Positions 32,736-57,300 of a stretch of 62,856 nucleotides of DNA are shown piece after piece; the stretch's first letter is position 1, and each line of letters starts with the position of its first letter. The notes beneath the pieces are model-generated. The model was not told the origin of the DNA. It worked only from the letters and a program-made list of their open reading frames with translations, and searched no databases. The stretch is from positions 6,559-69,414 of the forward strand of contig CAZFZQ010000001.1 of the NCBI GenBank assembly GCA_964522845.1, given 5' to 3'. The DNA comes from an uncultured Gammaproteobacteria bacterium (GTDB taxonomy: Bacteria; Patescibacteriota; Patescibacteriia; GCA-002772895). Position numbers and translations under genes: made by a program.

Positions 32736-33422
32736 ATGAATATATTTGTTGTTATTCCCGCTTATAACGAAGAAAAAGCTATTGGCCAGACCGTTTCTGA
32801 TGTACGCAAAATTCTTGCCCCGCGGAGTCTTGGCGAAGTGGGGTGTTCAAATATTATCGTTGTTGATGACGGCTCCGGCGACAAAACCGCTGAGGCGGCC
32901 GAGGTTGCCGGCGCAACTATTTTGCGGCATATTGTGAACCGCGGACAGGGAGCGGCGCTTCGCACGGGGATAAATTACGCGCTGGCGCAGGGCGCAGACG
33001 CAGTTGTTACTTTTGACGCTGACGGCCAATTTGAAGCCGAAGAAATTGGAAAAATTTGCGCGCCGCTCGCGGATGGGTTTTGCGACGTTGTCTTGGGTTC
33101 AAGATTTTTAACTCAAAATAAAATTCCGTTTATAAAAAGATTAATTCTTGCTCCGGCGATTTTTTTTACACGGTTGCTTACGGGTTTAAATTTGTCCGAT
33201 ACGCATAACGGTTTTCGCGCTATGAGCCGCGGGGCGGCGGAAAAAATAAATATCCGCCAAGACAGAATGGCGCATTCGTCGGAAATAATCCATGAAATAG
33301 CCCGGCTGAAACTCAAATTCAAAGAAATTCCCGTTACGGTTAAATATACAGAGTATTCTAAGCGTAAAGGACAAAAAATTTCGGGAGCACTCAAAATTTT
33401 ATTTGATTTGATAATGAAGTAG
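32736..33422 (+). CDS. GT2 glycosyltransferase (polyprenyl-phosphate sugar synthase-like, soluble form)
   Basis: IFVVIPAYNEE, VDDGSGDKT and FDADGQ. It contains an in-frame copy of a repeat at 32814-32843. Confidence 0.85.
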   Translation: MNIFVVIPAYNEEKAIGQTVSDVRKILAPRSLGEVGCSNIIVVDDGSGDKTAEAAEVAGATILRHIVNRGQGAALRTGINYALAQGADAVVTFDADGQFEAEEIGKICAPLADGFCDVVLGSRFLTQNKIPFIKRLILAPAIFFTRLLTGLNLSDTHNGFRAMSRGAAEKINIRQDRMAHSSEIIHEIARLKLKFKEIPVTVKYTEYSKRKGQKISGALKILFDLIMK

Positions 33423-37707: not shown

Positions 37708-38016
37708 CCCGGTAAGACCAACTTTGACCTCTTGCTATGTTCTACGCTTACGTGCTTTTAAGCTTGAAAGATAAAGAAAAATATATCGGCTATACTGCCG
37801 ACTTAATAAAACGCATGGAAGAACATAGCAAGGGATTGAATTTTTCCACAAAATACAGAAGACCATTGAAACTTATTTATTACGAAGCATGTCTTGATGA
37901 AAGAGATGCTAAGCAAAGAGAAAAATATCTAAAAACGACAGCTGGACGAAGATTTTTAGCCAAAAGATTAAAATATTATCTTTTTTACTGATTATTTTCA
38001 AAGTTGTCTTACCGGG
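37708..38016. mobile_element. 309-bp TIR-bounded element carrying only a GIY-YIG nuclease gene
   Basis: CCCGGTAAGACCAACTTTGA (37708-27) and TCAAAGTTGTCTTACCGGG (37998-38016). Flanking direct repeat TATG (37704-07 and 38017-20). Confidence 0.55.
37737..37991 (+). CDS. stand-alone GIY-YIG nuclease domain protein (YhbQ/COG2827-like)
   Basis: 84 aa with YAYVL...KYIGYT (GIY...YIG), R/E/N core residues, and KRLKYY at the end. Confidence 0.85.
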   Translation: MFYAYVLLSLKDKEKYIGYTADLIKRMEEHSKGLNFSTKYRRPLKLIYYEACLDERDAKQREKYLKTTAGRRFLAKRLKYYLFY

Positions 38017-47706: not shown

Positions 47707-47710
47707 TTTT

Positions 47711-47752
47711 ATGAACATTCTTGTTTCCTACAATTGGCTGAAAATAAAATGA
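47711..47752 (+). repeat. displaced duplicate of the pheT 5' end (13 codons then a stop)
   Basis: ATGAACATTCTTGTTTCCTACAATTGGCTGAA matches 49360-49391 with 1 mismatch. Confidence 0.8.
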
Positions 47753-48436: not shown

Positions 48437-49363
48437 ATGTTGAAAAGTTTATTCAACAAATTGATAGAATCTTACATTTTCGTTTTGTTGACGGCTCTTT
48501 TGGTCGGCATAATTTTTTCAAAGTACGCGGTTAAGGTTGCGCCGTATAATACGATTTTTTTGGGAATAATTTTTTTCTTCAGCGCGCTCAAGATTGACTT
48601 GAAAGAGGTTGCGGGATATCTTAAGGATAAAAAGATGATTGTCGTAGTTAATTTGTTCATGTTGTTCTTTTTACCTATTATCGTTTATTATCTGACACTC
48701 GGGGTCTATCCGGATTTGGCAATTGCATTTTTGATTTTAGCCGCCATGCCCTGCGGTATGACAACTCCGCTTTTATCGGAAATATGCGGAGGCCGGCAAG
48801 GTCTTGCCCTGGTCTTAGTTGTTACAACATCGCTTTTAGCTCCGTTTACCGCGCCTTTGGTAATTAAATTGGTTGCGGGAACGGCCGTTACGGTTAGTTT
48901 TTACACAATGTTCCTTTCTTTGGCAAAAGTTATTTTTATCCCTTTTGTTCTGGCCAACATCATAAAATTTTTCTGGCATCATAGGATAAAGGCGACTTAT
49001 TTTACTTTTAAGCCGATTTCCATAATTTTTCTCGCGCTTTTGATTATGGGCACGGTGGCGCAAAAAGCCGCCGTAATAATGAACGGATTGCAGGGAAAAT
49101 TTTTGATTTATGTTGTTTTGCTTTTTGCGCTGTTTGTGGTTTTGCACTTTTTTGGATATTTCACCATTTTTTGGCGCGAGAAAAAAGACAGGGTGACGGT
49201 TACGATTTGTCTCACATATATGAATTTTACTCTGGCAATATATCTTGCGGGTAATTTCTTTAATGAACCGAATGTTATCGTGCCGGTTGTACTTTCCATT
49301 TTACCCTGGTCGCTAATGATACTCCCGTTCAAATATTTAATGAAAAAATATAAATTTATATGA
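48437..49363 (+). CDS. 9-10 TM transporter, bile acid:Na+ symporter (BASS)/ACR3-like
   Basis: 308 aa, polytopic. The family assignment is from overall topology and length only. Its stop overlaps the pheT ATG. Confidence 0.5.
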   Translation: MLKSLFNKLIESYIFVLLTALLVGIIFSKYAVKVAPYNTIFLGIIFFFSALKIDLKEVAGYLKDKKMIVVVNLFMLFFLPIIVYYLTLGVYPDLAIAFLILAAMPCGMTTPLLSEICGGRQGLALVLVVTTSLLAPFTAPLVIKLVAGTAVTVSFYTMFLSLAKVIFIPFVLANIIKFFWHHRIKATYFTFKPISIIFLALLIMGTVAQKAAVIMNGLQGKFLIYVVLLFALFVVLHFFGYFTIFWREKKDRVTVTICLTYMNFTLAIYLAGNFFNEPNVIVPVVLSILPWSLMILPFKYLMKKYKFI

Positions 49364-51927
49364 ACATTCTTGTTTCCTACAATTGGTTGAAGGAATATCT
49401 GAAAACCGACTTGCCGCCGGAAGAATTTGCGGCCAAAGTTTCGCTTTGCGGGCCGTCGGTGGAGCGTATCCATCATCAGGGAACTGATTTGGATAAAATT
49501 GTTGTGGGAAAAATTTTGGGAGTGGAAAAACATCCTAATGCTGATAAATTGCGTTTGGTAGAAGTTGATATCGGCCCCACTTCGCCAAGGCTTCGCGGGA
49601 CAAGCCATAAACTCAAAGTGGTTTGTGGCGGGTCAAATTTGCAGGGCGGGATGAAAGTGGCGGTGGCGCTTTCCGGCGCAAAAATAAAATGGCACGGAGA
49701 AGGGGAGCTTGTGGAATTGAAACCAACAGAAATCCGCGGCGTGAAAAGCGAGGGAATGATCTGCGCGGCCGAAGAAATCGGGCTTGGCGCCGAGTTTCCA
49801 AAAAAAGATGAAAAAGAAATTTTAGATTTGTCGGATTTGTACGCGAAGCCGGGCACGCCCGGTAGTGAAACTTTGGTTCGCCGCTCTGGCGGCGCAAGAT
49901 TGGAATCTACCAAAGTTCTACTACCGGGCACGCCGCTTGCGGAAGCATTAAATTTGAAAGATGTTGTTTTTGATATTGAAGTGACAACCAACCGGCCGGA
50001 CATGATGTCAATTTTGGGAATTGCGCGCGAGGCGGGAACGATTTTGAAATCGCCGTTTACGATGCCGAAAATTGCGTCGCTAAAAGGTAGGGATGGCGGC
50101 GTTTCTTTGAAGGTAAAAAATGAAGAGCCGGAATTGTGCTATCGCTATCAGGCAATTGTGATAGAAGGCGTAAAAATAAAAAATTCTCCATGGTGGCTGA
50201 AACAAAAATTGGCCGCCGCGGGTACGCGCTCAATAAATAATGTCGTGGATATTACTAATTTTGTTTTGTGGGAAATGGGTCAGCCGCTGCACGCTTTTGA
50301 TTATGAAAAATTGGAAGGGAAAAATATTATTATCCGCAAGGCAAAAAAGGGCGAAAAAATAAAAGCGCTGGATGGATTGGATTATAAATTAAAAGAAGAA
50401 ATGCTCGTGATTGCCGACGGCAAAAAACCCGTGGCCATTGCCGGTGTTATGGGCGGAGAGGCGACGGGCGTGACGGATGGCACGCACACGATTGTGCTGG
50501 AAGCCGCGACTTTTGACCCCGTGTCCGTTCGCAGGACTTCGCGAGCTCTAAATTTGCGTAGCGATTCATCTAATCTATTTGAAAAAGGATTATCCACCGA
50601 GGCAACTAGCGTTGCTTTGGCGCGGGCGGCGGAACTGGTGATTCAACTTGCTGGCGGAGGAATTGCGAGCAAAGTTTTTGATTTGCGTGAAAAAGATTTT
50701 AAACCAAATGCCGTGGTCATGTCCGTGGAAAAAGCCAATAAAATAATGGGCATAGAGTTGGAGGCCGAGGCAATGGCGGATATTTTGAAACGGCTGGGAT
50801 TTGCCGTGAGCGTTAAAGGTAATGAGATAAAAGCCAAAGCGCCCTATTGGCGCGAAAATGATATGGAGATAGAAGAGGACTTGATTGAAGAAATAGCGCG
50901 GGTTTACGGCTACCATCGGTTGCCGTCCGTGCTTCCGGCCGGATCTCCTCCTTTTGGAAAAGGGAGGGACGGAGGGATGTTCCAATGGGAAAAAACCGCC
51001 AAACAGCTCGCTGCATCCGCGGGCTATGACGAAATTATTTCTTATGGAATGATTAGCAAAGGCATGATGGACGCGGCGGGCGAAAAAGACGCCATAAAGA
51101 TCGCCAATCCATTATCGGTGGATTTGGAATATATGCGCACCTGTCTTATGCCCGGACTTTTGCAAGCTGTGGCGCAAAATGAAAATAATTTTCCATCTGC
51201 AAAAATTTTTGAACTTTCCCGCGTTTACACGCCCGCCAAAAAAGGCGTCCGCCAGCTGGCGGATTTGCCGAAAGAAGAATTGCATTTTGCGGGGATAAAT
51301 TATGGCAAGTCGTCCAAGGGTGAATTATTTTATGAAGCCAAGGGTTTTGCGGAAATGATTTTGGAAAAATTTGGCATTTTTTCGTCTGTCATTCCCGCGG
51401 AGGCGGGAATCCAGTTCCATGAATCCGACGATAAAAATTTTCATCCCGCGCGCTCCGTTGATATATATTTCAAAAAAGATTGGATTGGCGCTTATGGCGA
51501 AGTGCACCCCATAACGGCTAAAAATTTTGGCCTATCCTGCGAAGCCGGACTTTTCTATTTTGATTTTGACGCCCTGCTCGCTCATGCCAAATCGCACAAA
51601 GCATACGCGCCCATTCCGGAATTTCCGGGCGTGAAGCGCGACATTTCTTTTATTGTTGATAAAAAAATGGAATACGAAAAAATAAAACAAACCGTGGCGT
51701 CGGCCCACGCGCTCGTCGCCGAAGTGGAGCCGTTTGATGTGTATGAACCATCCTTCGCTAAAGCTTCGGATGGCAGGGGGCAAATTCCTATGGGTAAGAA
51801 AAGTATTGCGCTTCATATTCTTTTCCAATCTGCCAATCGCACATTGGAAGCCAAAGAAGCGGACGAGGCATTTGAAAAAATAGTTTCCGCATTGAAAAAG
51901 GATTTTGGCGCGGAAATCAGAATGTGA
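49360..51927 (+). CDS. pheT: phenylalanine--tRNA ligase beta subunit
   Basis: MNILVSYNWLKEYL start, tRNA-binding domain, B3/4 and B5 regions, TTNRPD. 855 aa including several repeat-derived insertions. Confidence 0.95.
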   Translation: MNILVSYNWLKEYLKTDLPPEEFAAKVSLCGPSVERIHHQGTDLDKIVVGKILGVEKHPNADKLRLVEVDIGPTSPRLRGTSHKLKVVCGGSNLQGGMKVAVALSGAKIKWHGEGELVELKPTEIRGVKSEGMICAAEEIGLGAEFPKKDEKEILDLSDLYAKPGTPGSETLVRRSGGARLESTKVLLPGTPLAEALNLKDVVFDIEVTTNRPDMMSILGIAREAGTILKSPFTMPKIASLKGRDGGVSLKVKNEEPELCYRYQAIVIEGVKIKNSPWWLKQKLAAAGTRSINNVVDITNFVLWEMGQPLHAFDYEKLEGKNIIIRKAKKGEKIKALDGLDYKLKEEMLVIADGKKPVAIAGVMGGEATGVTDGTHTIVLEAATFDPVSVRRTSRALNLRSDSSNLFEKGLSTEATSVALARAAELVIQLAGGGIASKVFDLREKDFKPNAVVMSVEKANKIMGIELEAEAMADILKRLGFAVSVKGNEIKAKAPYWRENDMEIEEDLIEEIARVYGYHRLPSVLPAGSPPFGKGRDGGMFQWEKTAKQLAASAGYDEIISYGMISKGMMDAAGEKDAIKIANPLSVDLEYMRTCLMPGLLQAVAQNENNFPSAKIFELSRVYTPAKKGVRQLADLPKEELHFAGINYGKSSKGELFYEAKGFAEMILEKFGIFSSVIPAEAGIQFHESDDKNFHPARSVDIYFKKDWIGAYGEVHPITAKNFGLSCEAGLFYFDFDALLAHAKSHKAYAPIPEFPGVKRDISFIVDKKMEYEKIKQTVASAHALVAEVEPFDVYEPSFAKASDGRGQIPMGKKSIALHILFQSANRTLEAKEADEAFEKIVSALKKDFGAEIRM
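49858..49928. mobile_element. 71-bp TIR element inserted in frame in pheT (75 nt with the duplicated CACG)
   Basis: CCCGGTAGTGAAACTTTGG (49858-76) and CCAAAGTTCTACTACCGGG (49910-28). CACG flanks it at 49854-57 and 49929-32. It encodes PGSETLVRRSGGARLESTKVLLPGT. Confidence 0.55.
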
Positions 51928-54398: not shown

Positions 54399-57300
54399 AT
54401 GTTTATTCATCTTCATTGCCACTCTCATTACTCACTCTTAGACGGTCTCCCAAAGATACCGGATCTTGTTAATCGTGCCAAGGAATTGGGTATGACGAGT
54501 TTGGCGTTGACCGATCATGGTGTGATGTATGGCATTATTGATTTTTATAAAGCGTGTAAGAAAGCGGGGATTAAGCCCATCTTGGGCGTTGAGGCATACG
54601 TGGCGCCGCGCAAACATACGGACAAAGAATCCGGCGTGGACACCAAGCCATATCACTTGGTTTTGCTCGCGAAAAATGAAACCGGCTATAAAAATCTTTT
54701 GAAACTCACTTCCATCGCGCATTTGGATGGCTACTATTATAAACCGCGCGTGGATAAAGAATTGCTAAAACAATACAGCGAGGGGATTATTGCCACCTCC
54801 GCTTGTTTGAATGGCGAAGTGGCGCGCCAGCTTTTATCCGGCAATTACGAAAACGCGGAAAATTCTCTCCGCGAATACAAAGAAATTTTTGGCGAAGGAA
54901 ATTTTTATTTGGAAGTCCAACCGCAAACTTCAACAGAAAATAACGAACAGCAAATTGTGAACGATCGTTTGATTGAATTGGCAAGAAAAACCAATACGCC
55001 GCTCGTGGCCACCAAAGACGTGCATTATGTTTTGAAAGAAGATGCCGAGGCGCAAGACGCGCTTCTCTGTATTCAAACCGGTACGCAACTCGCCAATACT
55101 GACCGGCTTACCATGCGCGCGATTGATTGTTCGTTTTCTTCGGAAGAAGAAATGCGCGCTTTTTTTCCAAATTTGCCCGAGGCCATAGACAACACTGTAA
55201 AAATTGCCGAGGCCTGCAATGTGGAGCTCGTCCTCGGCACAAACATTTTGCCAAAATTTGTCGTGCCGTCCGGCACGACGGACGTGGAATATTTGAGCGA
55301 GCTGTGCGAAATTGGCCTTGCTAAACGCTATAAAGAAATTACAAAAGAAATTCGTGATCGTTTGGAGTGGGAGCTTTCCATTATTAACCGCATGGGGTTT
55401 GCGTCTTATTTTTTAATCGTTGACGATTTAATTAAATTTGCCAAAAATCAAGGCATTGTCGTTGGCCCGGGCAGGGGATCGGCCGCCGGTTCCATTATTT
55501 CTTATGTTTTAGGCATCACGGATTTGGACCCGATTCATTACAAATTACTTTTTGAAAGATTTTTGAATCCCGATCGCATTTCCATGCCTGATATTGATCT
55601 GGATTTTTCCGACACGCGCCGGCATGAAGTTATTGAATACGTGCAGGAAAAATATGGCAAGGATCGGGTCGCCGGCATCATTACTTTTGGAACCATGATG
55701 GCGCGCGCCGTACTGCGCGACGTAGGCAGGGTGATGGGAATGCCTTACACGGATGTTGACCGCATCGCCAAAATGATTCCGCCTCCGGTGCAGGGCAAGC
55801 ACACTCCGCTTTCAAAACATATCCAAGAAATTACGGAGCTTAGAGAATTGTACGAAAAAAATGGCGAGATCCGGCAGCTTTTTGATTTATCCGTAAAGTT
55901 GGAAGGCACGGTGCGCCATGCTTCCCAGCACGCTTGCGGAGTTATTATCGGTGACCGGCCGCTTACCGAACACGCGCCTTTGCAAAAAGCTCAAGGCGGA
56001 GATGTTGAAATTGTGTCGCAATATTCTCTGCATCCGATTGAAGACGTTGGTCCGTTAAAAATTGATTTTTTGGGTTTGGCAAATCTTTCTATTATTCAAG
56101 ACACGATAGAAATCGCGCAAGCTGTGGAAAAAAATTTGGGCCGCGAAATAAAAATAAATATTGAAGAAATTCCCCTAAACGACAAAAAAACATTTCAACT
56201 TTTAGCGCGCGCGGAAACGACTGGTGTGTTTCAATTGGAATCCGCGGGAATGAAACGATACATCAAAGAATTGAAACCAAATAATATTGAAGATATTATT
56301 GCCATGGTCGCGCTTTACCGTCCGGGGCCGATGCAGTTTATTGACAGTTTTATTAAACGCAAACACGGCAAGGAAAGAATTACTTACGCGCATCCGTCAA
56401 TGGAAAACGCCACTAAGAACACTTATGGCATGACCATCTATCAGGAGCAAGTCATGCAAATTTCCAAAGATATGGCGGGATTTACCGGCGGCGAGGCGGA
56501 CACTTTGCGCAAAGCCATCGGTAAAAAAATTCCGGAATTAATGGCAAAAATGAGAGCTAAGTTTGTTGAAGGGTCGGTAAAGAACGGCGTGGAAAAAAAA
56601 CTGGCTGAAGAAATTTTTACGCAATTTGAAGATTTTGCCGCCTACTCGTTCAATCGTTCGCACGCCGCCTGTTACGCCATGATTGCTTACCGCACGGCCT
56701 ACCTCAAAGCGCGCTGGCCGGATTGTTTTATGGCCGCGCTCATGAATGCCGACTCCGGCGATTTGGATAGAATTACAATTGAAGTTGAAGAATGCAAATC
56801 GTTGGGACTGGAAGTTTTGCCGCCGGACATCAACGAATCGTTTCCTCGTTTTGCCGTGGTGCCCGGAACTAATAAAATCCGTTTCGGGCTGGAAGCGGTG
56901 AAAAATATCGGATCGGAGATCGCGAAAAATATTATTGCCGAGCGCAAAGAGAATGGAAAATTTGATTCGCTGGAAAATTTGCTGGAACGCGTGCAGGATA
57001 AAAATTTGAATAAAAAATCTTTGGAGTCGTTTATAAAATGCGGAGCGCTGGATTCTTTCGGCGAGCGGGGAATGATGCTTGCCAATGTGCAAAAAATGCT
57101 TGATTTCCATCGCGATGTAAAGACCGCGGCGAAACCGCAAAATTCGCTTTTTGGCGGATCGGGTATTGCGCTTAGCCGCGCGATTTTGCGATTGGAGCCC
57201 GCGCCTGAGGCGGAATTCAAACAAAAATTGGCTTGGGAAAAAGAACTTTTGGGGCTTTATATTTCCGCCCATCCTTTTTCCCATCTCGCGCCGTATGCTA

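Follow-up and report, generated by a model that had tools for sequence, protein, structure and literature searches.

Rickettsia palindromic elements (RPEs) are the classic example of palindromic repeats that lie in frame within many unrelated housekeeping genes (Ogata et al., 2000, 2002, as covered in PMC10969869). Here we consider a comparable case in pheT, the essential gene for the beta subunit of phenylalanyl-tRNA synthetase (PheRS), carried on a 62,856-nt stretch of contig CAZFZQ010000001.1 (assembly GCA_964522845.1; this whole stretch is referred to as the window) from a bacterium of the Candidate Phyla Radiation (CPR, or Patescibacteria). In all likelihood, selfish hairpin-repeat DNA has been copied into this gene in frame, with the surviving copies located in predicted loops, and the repeats concerned are found throughout the genome. 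As covered in PMC10969869, RPEs are likewise selfish palindromes, of several families in a small genome, whose extra peptide segments are judged to be compatible with the fold. RPE-1 is ~100-150 bp long, whereas the elements described here are mostly 27-36 nt (9-12 codons), along with one 71-nt MITE (miniature inverted-repeat transposable element); the host is a free-standing CPR lineage and not an alphaproteobacterium, and a single gene holds 5-6 inserts from 4-5 families.

Repetitive extragenic palindromic (REP) sequences provide a second precedent. According to Di Nocera et al. (2013; PMC3733652), CGTC-1 is the same as Neisseria dRS3 and R. conorii RPE-6; CGTC repeats have no known transposase and, in their survey, occur in five phyla, mostly in alphaproteobacteria, with most copies intergenic. 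The survey also describes intragenic GTAG and CGTC REPs from several species in tRNA synthetase genes, uvrA, uvrB, uvrD, recBCD and dnaE. NTS/SRM hairpins have been linked to the Ssn family of GIY-YIG single-strand nucleases, whose published role is the modulation of transformation; mobility has only been hypothesised, an insertion sequence (IS)-like reading of the NTS-ssnA-NTS arrangement has been raised, and only 2% of NTS copies in N. meningitidis are intragenic (Chenal et al., 2025, PMC11893778). In-frame intragenic MITEs are also known, including ERIC, BOX and others (PMC10969869). As intragenic REPs and RPEs, including those in aminoacyl-tRNA synthetase and repair genes, have already been published, the pheT case is a further instance of a known phenomenon, which had been described in Rickettsia and a few proteobacteria and is now seen in a CPR genome of ultra-small size. 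What is new here is the phylum and the unusual density, and the phenomenon is not peculiar to pheT. Our literature search returned no paper on in-frame palindromic repeats in CPR bacteria and nothing on VIPAKAGIQ, SRLRGND and related peptide strings.

The pheT open reading frame (ORF) spans positions 49360 to 51927 of the forward strand and is intact, encoding 855 amino acids (aa) with all five PheT domains present (tRNA_bind, B3_4, B5, CLM and FDX-ACB), while the baseline length in the clade is ~796-802 aa. The draft genome comprises 906,894 bp in 90 contigs (43.7% G+C, 94% complete), ~90% of it coding, and the PheT homologs recovered by database search are labelled Patescibacteria or Parcubacteria. 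Two sets of PheT sequences were compared. The first contains 28 genomes of the same class, of which the nearest belongs to the same family and another genus and is 58% identical; the second contains 115 closer homologs, making 116 orthologs with the PheT of this genome (P0001). The closer orthologs from the database search have identities of 80, 80, 74, 72, 70, 68, 66 and 62% and lengths of 796-870 aa, and pheT was compared codon by codon with orthologs at 68-81% nucleotide identity. An initial annotation, made from the sequence of the window, had described five segments of PheT as repeat-derived in-frame insertions. All five lie where it placed them and its reading of the ORF stands; four (S1, S2, S4 and S5) are insertions, while S3 is repeat-derived and adds merely 2 aa relative to the orthologs, and is therefore a replacement and not a clean insertion. 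A sixth insertion, VRQLA (S6), had not been among the claimed segments. These segments, two related features of the window and the corresponding blocks of a structural model are given in Table 1.

Table 1. Repeat-derived segments of pheT, related features of the window, and blocks of the predicted PheT structure (REP, repetitive extragenic palindromic sequence; TIR, terminal inverted repeat; pLDDT, predicted local distance difference test score)
Feature	Position	Strand	Description	Location or remarks
S1	49576..49602	+	27-nt insertion CCCACTTCGCCAAGGCTTCGCGGGACA, PTSPRLRGT, aa 73-81; S1/S5 hairpin superfamily	beta-hairpin loop, tRNA-binding OB domain
S2	49854..49932	+	71-nt MITE (49858-49928), 19-nt TIRs, 4-nt direct repeat CACG	between B2 and B3 domains
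S3	50945..50981	+	C/G-run hairpin and GGAGGGAT module, SPPFGKGRDGG	replacement or old insertion
S6	51247..51261	+	15-nt insertion VRQLA	16-nt perfect palindrome TCCGCCAGCTGGCGGA at 51248-51263, preceded by CGTC
S4	51385..51414	+	CGTC-1-type REP / NTS-like hairpin TCTGTCATTCCCGCGGAGGCGGGAATCCAG, SSVIPAEAGIQ	TGTC tag, 8-bp stem, 4-nt loop, CCA tail
S5	51748..51783	+	36-nt hairpin element CCATCCTTCGCTAAAGCTTCGGATGGCAGGGGGCAA	beta-hairpin loop, FDX-ACB domain
S1-family copy	32814..32843	-	30 nt, 90% complementary	in 228-aa ORF, read LAPRSLGEVG
TIR-bounded element	37708..38016	+	308 nt; sole ORF an 84-aa GIY-YIG nuclease (37737-37991)	ends CCCGGTAAGACCAACTTTGA resemble S2 ends
Model block	residues 71-80		pLDDT 74	
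Model block	residues 161-190		pLDDT 40-68	
Model block	residues 521-540		pLDDT ~60	
Model block	residues 631-640		pLDDT 68	
Model block	residues 671-680		pLDDT 73	
Model block	residues 791-810		pLDDT 60-76	

The orthologs bear out the comparison with RPE-type, lineage-specific insertion that the initial annotation had drawn. Gaps in the alignment fall exactly at S1 (9 aa), S2 (25 aa), S4 (9 aa) and S5 (9 aa), which are missing in 28 of the 28 class relatives and gapped also in the PheRS chains of the PDB and in most of the 115 closer homologs. When the 116 orthologs were screened for rare insertions, taken as 5 aa or longer, this PheT proved to have five, namely the same four and VRQLA at residue 630, the latter being unique to this genome. 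Among the closer orthologs, S1 is filled only in P0002 and, as a 10-aa (30-nt) version, in P0009, with the site empty in P0003 to P0006; S2 and S4 are each confined to P0002; P0003 and P0006 carry S5, which P0002, P0004 and P0005 do not; and S3-like sequence occurs in P0003, P0004 and P0008. The possibility of an assembly artefact was ruled out, because independent assemblies share S1, S2 and S4 (P0002) or S5 (P0003 and P0006).

At the nucleotide level, S1 is a clean addition of 27 nt (CCCACTTCGCCAAGGCTTCGCGGGACA between GGC and AGC), and S2 contributes 71 + 4 = 75 nt, or 25 codons, at a site that P0004 retains in its empty form (AAG/CCCGGTACGCC). S6 adds 15 nt, creating the palindrome TCCGCCAGCTGGCGGA. 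At S4 ~33 nt were gained and ~9 native nt lost, at S5 36 nt were gained and 9 native nt lost (net +27 nt; PSFAKASDGRGQ), and at S3 ~18 nt were exchanged for ~24. Predicted peptides spanning the insert junctions include DIGPTSPR and SSVIPAEAGIQFH. The inserts are better conserved than the rest of pheT: S5 is identical at 34 of 36 nt between P0001 and P0006, while the whole gene is 71% identical and its third codon positions 47%. One explanation for this pattern is that old PheT loops have been overwritten by gene conversion from dispersed copies, so that the conservation reflects concerted evolution. It would account for the replacement of native bases at S3, S4 and S5, where the sites are similar to the element, and for inserts that are more conserved than synonymous sites, and it is in keeping with a compensatory pair in S2 that distinguishes P0001 from P0002 (GGT/ACC to GGC/GCC), the variant being present also in a genomic copy on contig C28. 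Against it, the empty sites of S1 and S2 are exact and both were added cleanly, S2 with a duplication of its target site, and the 28 distant relatives carry no extra residues at the four insertion sites. We therefore regard homogenisation of old loops as a doubtful substitute for the copying of repeat DNA into pheT.

Each segment can be assigned to a repeat family of the genome. S4 belongs to a family with the consensus GTCATTCCCGCGAAGGCGGGAATCCAG, present in 26-27 copies in 0.9 Mb, where a reversed-pattern control gave 0. The published NTS consensus CGTCATTCCCGCGMAVGCGGGAATCYRG fits this genome consensus except at the first base (T for C), and the pheT copy has G at position M of the NTS consensus. 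The pheT copy can be written as ATTCCCGC / GGAG / GCGGGAAT / CCA and folds at -10.3 kcal/mol (z = -4.3); a TGTC tag, an accepted variant of CGTC, stands ahead of the stem here and in most of 25 genome copies, and the stem of 8 bp starts with AT. In tag, stem, loop and 3-nt tail S4 thus agrees with CGTC-1 as defined in PMC3733652, and is identical in type to Neisseria dRS3/NTS. Of the 26 genome copies, 13 are inside long ORFs and half are outside ORFs, unlike the mostly intergenic copies in that survey, the consulted part of which does not name Patescibacteria, and unlike the 2% intragenic share of N. meningitidis NTS (PMC11893778). The initial annotation had also reported a non-coding relative of the VIPAEAGIQ hairpin within the window. 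This was not borne out, since in the window only the pheT copy matches. A search for a second full NTS hairpin in the window likewise found none, a 13-nt match at 56241-56253 being a chance half-site in a gene.

S2 has the attributes of a MITE, namely terminal inverted repeats (TIRs), a short target-site duplication, the lack of an ORF and a larger putative partner whose ends resemble its own, and its hairpin is strong relative to shuffled sequence (z = -8.9). Relatives of its TIRs lie elsewhere in the window, as previously annotated (36631-49 and 37998-38016; 4 matches against 0.09 expected). Across the genome, 19 paired TIR-bounded elements were found, most of 128-150 nt; the pheT copy, at 71 nt, is half the usual length, the shortest of the 19 and the only one that is intragenic. 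Other copies end in 4-nt direct repeats, TATG or CATA. The 308-nt element in Table 1 shares TIRs with S2 (16 of 19 positions alike) and is the putative autonomous partner of the family. In a departure from known MITEs, the sole product it encodes is a predicted GIY-YIG nuclease of 84 aa, and it has no recognised transposase.

S1 and S5 share one architecture, consisting of CC, a 6-nt stem, a conserved 14-nt loop TTCGCYAARGCTNC, the second stem arm and CARG. The loop has 59 hits in the genome, in which the 6-bp stems covary. No fewer than 19 copies of S1 occur in the genome, one of which, in alaS (AlaRS), is identical over 33 nt, and the oppositely oriented copy in the window noted by the initial annotation is genuine. 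Its statement that segments of the TTCGC..GCTTCG type recur only inside genes does not extend to the genome, where 4 of 22 S1-type and 4 of 16 S5-type copies are outside ORFs. S1 and S5 do not qualify as GTAG-tagged REPs of the kind associated with RAYT, as they start with CC, end with CARG and lack a terminal GTAG, and they carry no CGTC tag either. Two features support a hairpin here, and only these two: the stem covariation and an asymmetry in stem mismatches, which on the strand as written are A.C in 54 cases and G.T in 6 across the 59 copies. This excess of A.C over G.T means that the complementary strand is the one keeping wobble pairing, which points to a single-stranded intermediate and not to a structure in pheT mRNA. 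S3 derives from a family composed of a C/G-run hairpin followed by the GGAGGGAT module; of its 37 nt, 32 agree with the family consensus, a score that shares third place among ~1.8 million genome windows. The description of the segments as several unrelated families accordingly needs revision, as S1 and S5 form one superfamily, S2 shares its TIRs with a GIY-YIG element, and the S4 type is tied in the literature to Ssn GIY-YIG nucleases.

The repeats are not confined to pheT. In a census of 14-mers with at least 4 copies and at least 6 G+C (12-mers were dominated by AT-rich low-complexity words), 234 hairpin-type repeat intervals were recognised. Of these, 133 fall within ORFs of 150 aa or longer, at a density of 0.185 per kb, and 81, at 0.95 per kb, fall outside ORFs. 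Families were set by core motifs, as single-linkage clustering merged most hairpin families into one cluster of 198 through nested and composite copies. At least one interval is found in 86 of 661 long ORFs (~13%). Genes that are decorated in this way and keep their Pfam domains encode AlaRS, ProRS, a UvrD-like helicase, RecG, RecJ, RecO, SecA, PrmC, Alr (alanine racemase), a MiaB-like protein, ThyX and MgsA. One DNA repeat can be read in up to five of the six frames in different genes, giving VIPAKAGIQ, SFPRRRES, HSREGGN, DSRLRGND or WIPAFAGMT. As the same DNA occurs in several frames and outside ORFs, the repeated unit is the DNA and not a peptide motif, and a functional motif at the protein level was ruled out on these grounds. 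One further ORF, of 242 aa and reverse transcriptase-like by eye (C6:2453-3181), contains an NTS copy (WIPAFAGMT) together with an S1-type copy (PHSAEASRDK). A search of the class, covering 151 genomes, detected the NTS pattern in 60, at up to 48 copies per genome (reversed control 0), and the S1/S5 loop in 39; of the same-family genomes, 0 of 2 have the NTS pattern. The patchy distribution of NTS suggests horizontal spread.

In every intragenic copy examined, the change in length is a multiple of three and the insert is free of stop codons in the frame of its host. This observation bears on whether the segments belong to the mature protein, as they could instead be excised from the mRNA or skipped by the ribosome. 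Nothing speaks directly for removal or bypass; in the mRNA, S2 and S4 would fold into stable hairpins. Preservation of the frame argues the other way, as do the orthologous inserts of P0002, which are in frame despite mostly non-synonymous nucleotide changes, and the better-pairing strand of S1 and S5, which is the pheT antisense strand. To our knowledge, there is no splicing system for bacterial inserts of 27 nt. Removal or bypass is, in our judgement, extremely improbable.

The initial annotation had called pheT a hotspot, which holds in part. By the k-mer criterion, pheT carries 3 intervals against 0.47 expected (P = 0.013); ~8 such genes are expected among 661, and pheT ranks ~13th. Other genes are more heavily loaded, including those for a 658-aa protein of unknown family (6 intervals), PrmC (5), RecO (4) and a UvrD-like helicase-nuclease (4). 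Within this genome, hotspot status is thus modestly supported at best. Across the clade, however, PheT loops are reused, with other families at the same sites in sister lineages. The loop near residue 575 holds an S1-type insert in P0002 and an NTS in P0004; around residue 650, P0004, P0007 and P0010 each carry a different family; and at residues 674-686 the place of the NTS of this genome is taken in P0004 by a C/G-run element. The pheT of P0002 (L031) carries seven repeat inserts, including SPTSHKASRDKG, RVPRSLGEVG and DPTSREASRGA, and that of P0004 (L033) combines two PSSILPLSKGEEGG copies with an NTS placed elsewhere and a 23-aa insert whose origin is unknown.

On a PheT tree made without the insert columns, empty-site lineages come between those that carry S1 or S5, so that some gains at the same site were independent or alleles were moved by recombination. 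Such recurrence could reflect targeted insertion, in which a site-specific enzyme (e.g. an Ssn-like GIY-YIG nuclease) recognises motifs, PheT is a true hotspot by virtue of several such motifs in its DNA, and loop tolerance is secondary. S1 stands at the same codon in P0001 and P0002 and in P0009 with empty-site lineages between them, and the distribution of S5 is similarly discontinuous. The empty site GGCAAGGG resembles the element tail GGCAGG, and the S2 target CCCGGTACG resembles the TIR end CCCGGTA; this resemblance of empty sites to element ends lends sequence targeting some plausibility. Repeats are also overdispersed among genes, with 8 ORFs having at least 3 intervals where random placement predicts 1.5. 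However, different families have entered the same loops (in P0002, P0004, P0007 and P0010), for which selection for permissive loops is the simpler explanation; the four-taxon clade is unresolved, and recombination or loss could yield the patchiness; and the flanks of 24 S1 and 25 NTS copies show no clear target consensus apart from a pyrimidine-rich 5' flank of NTS. Loop tolerance explains the reuse of sites most simply, and we consider targeting by motif to be rather unlikely.

The locations of the segments in a predicted structure fit with tolerance. An AlphaFold2 model of PheT, built on 116 sequences, has a mean pLDDT of 90.7, and all six sites lie in coil between secondary-structure elements, with local dips in pLDDT (Table 1). 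On this model, the inserts would occupy surface-exposed, structurally tolerant positions.

The course of events that best accommodates these results may be set out as follows. The genome hosts several small GC-rich repeat families (CGTC-tagged REPs, the TTCGCYAARGCTNC-loop superfamily, C/G-run hairpins and MITEs) whose elements copy themselves to new sites. Insertion would sometimes be clean, as with the 27 nt of S1 or the 71 nt and 4-nt duplication of S2, and would sometimes replace a few native bases where the site resembles the element end. With ~90% of the genome coding, many insertions would hit genes, and those that survive in essential genes would be multiples of three, free of stop codons and situated in loops. 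Surviving copies would then be translated as extra peptide loops, probably neutral rather than useful, and pheT would have accumulated five insertions and one replacement in this manner. Several points weigh against this account. We infer both the translation of the inserts and their current mobility. The individual copies of S1 and S5 fold no better than shuffled sequence (z = +1.0 and -0.6), so that the palindromic character initially ascribed to the segments is strong in S2 and S4 and not in these two. At S3, S4 and S5 native bases were lost, so that more than simple addition took place, a pattern as compatible with templated repair or gene conversion as with transposition. Gene calls were a crude longest-ORF proxy, and the intragenic share of the repeats is therefore approximate. 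Lastly, in contrast to the described Ssn/NTS systems, none of the four small GIY-YIG genes in the 94%-complete draft is flanked by CCCGC-type NTS.

The candidates for a mobilising enzyme are these four small single-domain GIY-YIG genes (C18:9965-10186, C55:2411-2632, window 37737-37991 and C2:23218) and one Y1_Tnp-like ORF. The likeness to Ssn/NTS lies in the fit of the consensus GTCATTCCCGCGAAGGCGGGAATCCAG and in the presence of the GIY-YIG proteins themselves. The C55 gene is flanked on both sides by SRM-like hairpins (GTCATTGCGAGG..GCAATC), recalling the NTS-ssnA-NTS arrangement (PMC11893778), and the gene in the window is flanked by TIRs shared with the S2 MITE. The sole Y1_Tnp-like (IS200/IS605-type) ORF (C30:2243-2488) is preceded by copies of the hairpin CTATAGGGAGTTTCACTTCCTATAG (C30:1867-2004), which is unlike S1/S5, and the two may form a REPtron-like pair. 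On the account favoured here, GIY-YIG (Ssn-like) or Y1 enzymes would mobilise the segments via single-stranded DNA. A bolder proposal, which we think quite unlikely, is that Ssn-type GIY-YIG nucleases and hairpins constitute an active, site-selective mobile system in Patescibacteria, one that time and again writes identical 27-36-nt cassettes into identical codons of essential genes, independently in different lineages. If this were true, the hairpins would steadily supply CPR proteomes with new protein loops, and the 'transposase' that CGTC-type REPs are missing would be the GIY-YIG proteins.

Whichever enzyme is responsible, the series of filled and empty PheT sites can be used to ask whether CGTC/NTS hairpins still move and by what means, Ssn being the candidate put forward in 2025. 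It can also be used to ask what share of the 'CPR-specific' insertions in conserved proteins is derived from repeats. Such inserts inflate alignments and may mislead the annotation of CPR proteins.

Some further observations concern the same repeats and nucleases. A hairpin near-identical to CTATAGGGAGTTTCACTTCCTATAG follows the GIY-YIG gene on C18 (9965-10186), and members of this family are read in frame as IGSETPYS or IGSFTSYS in a UvrD-like helicase, SecA, ThyX and PrmC. At C2:23000-23500, the small GIY-YIG gene has on one side a partial tRNA-like sequence, into which CCCGCCTCGACTCGC..GCGAGGCGGG repeats intrude, and on the other a tRNA gene that is seemingly intact by eye; this nuclease element could have inserted next to or into a tRNA gene. 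The first ~32 nt of pheT, including the start codon, are duplicated 1649 nt upstream at 94% identity (47707-47742 and 49356-49391). The upstream duplicate stands just before a 308-aa membrane-protein ORF (48437-49363) that abuts pheT; apparently, a gene entered between pheS and pheT, and the 5' end of pheT was duplicated along with it. Finally, sequences of 26-43 nt, e.g. ATATGTCTCAACCGGAGACAGCAAAGTTAC and CTATTTGGCTCTACTATGAAATTATCATTTGGCTACGACA, recur exactly at contig termini, such as the starts of C29, C67, C86, C11, C36, C43, C54, C46 and C61, which indicates that contigs end where the assembly did not resolve larger repeats; these may be IS elements or rRNA/tRNA clusters.

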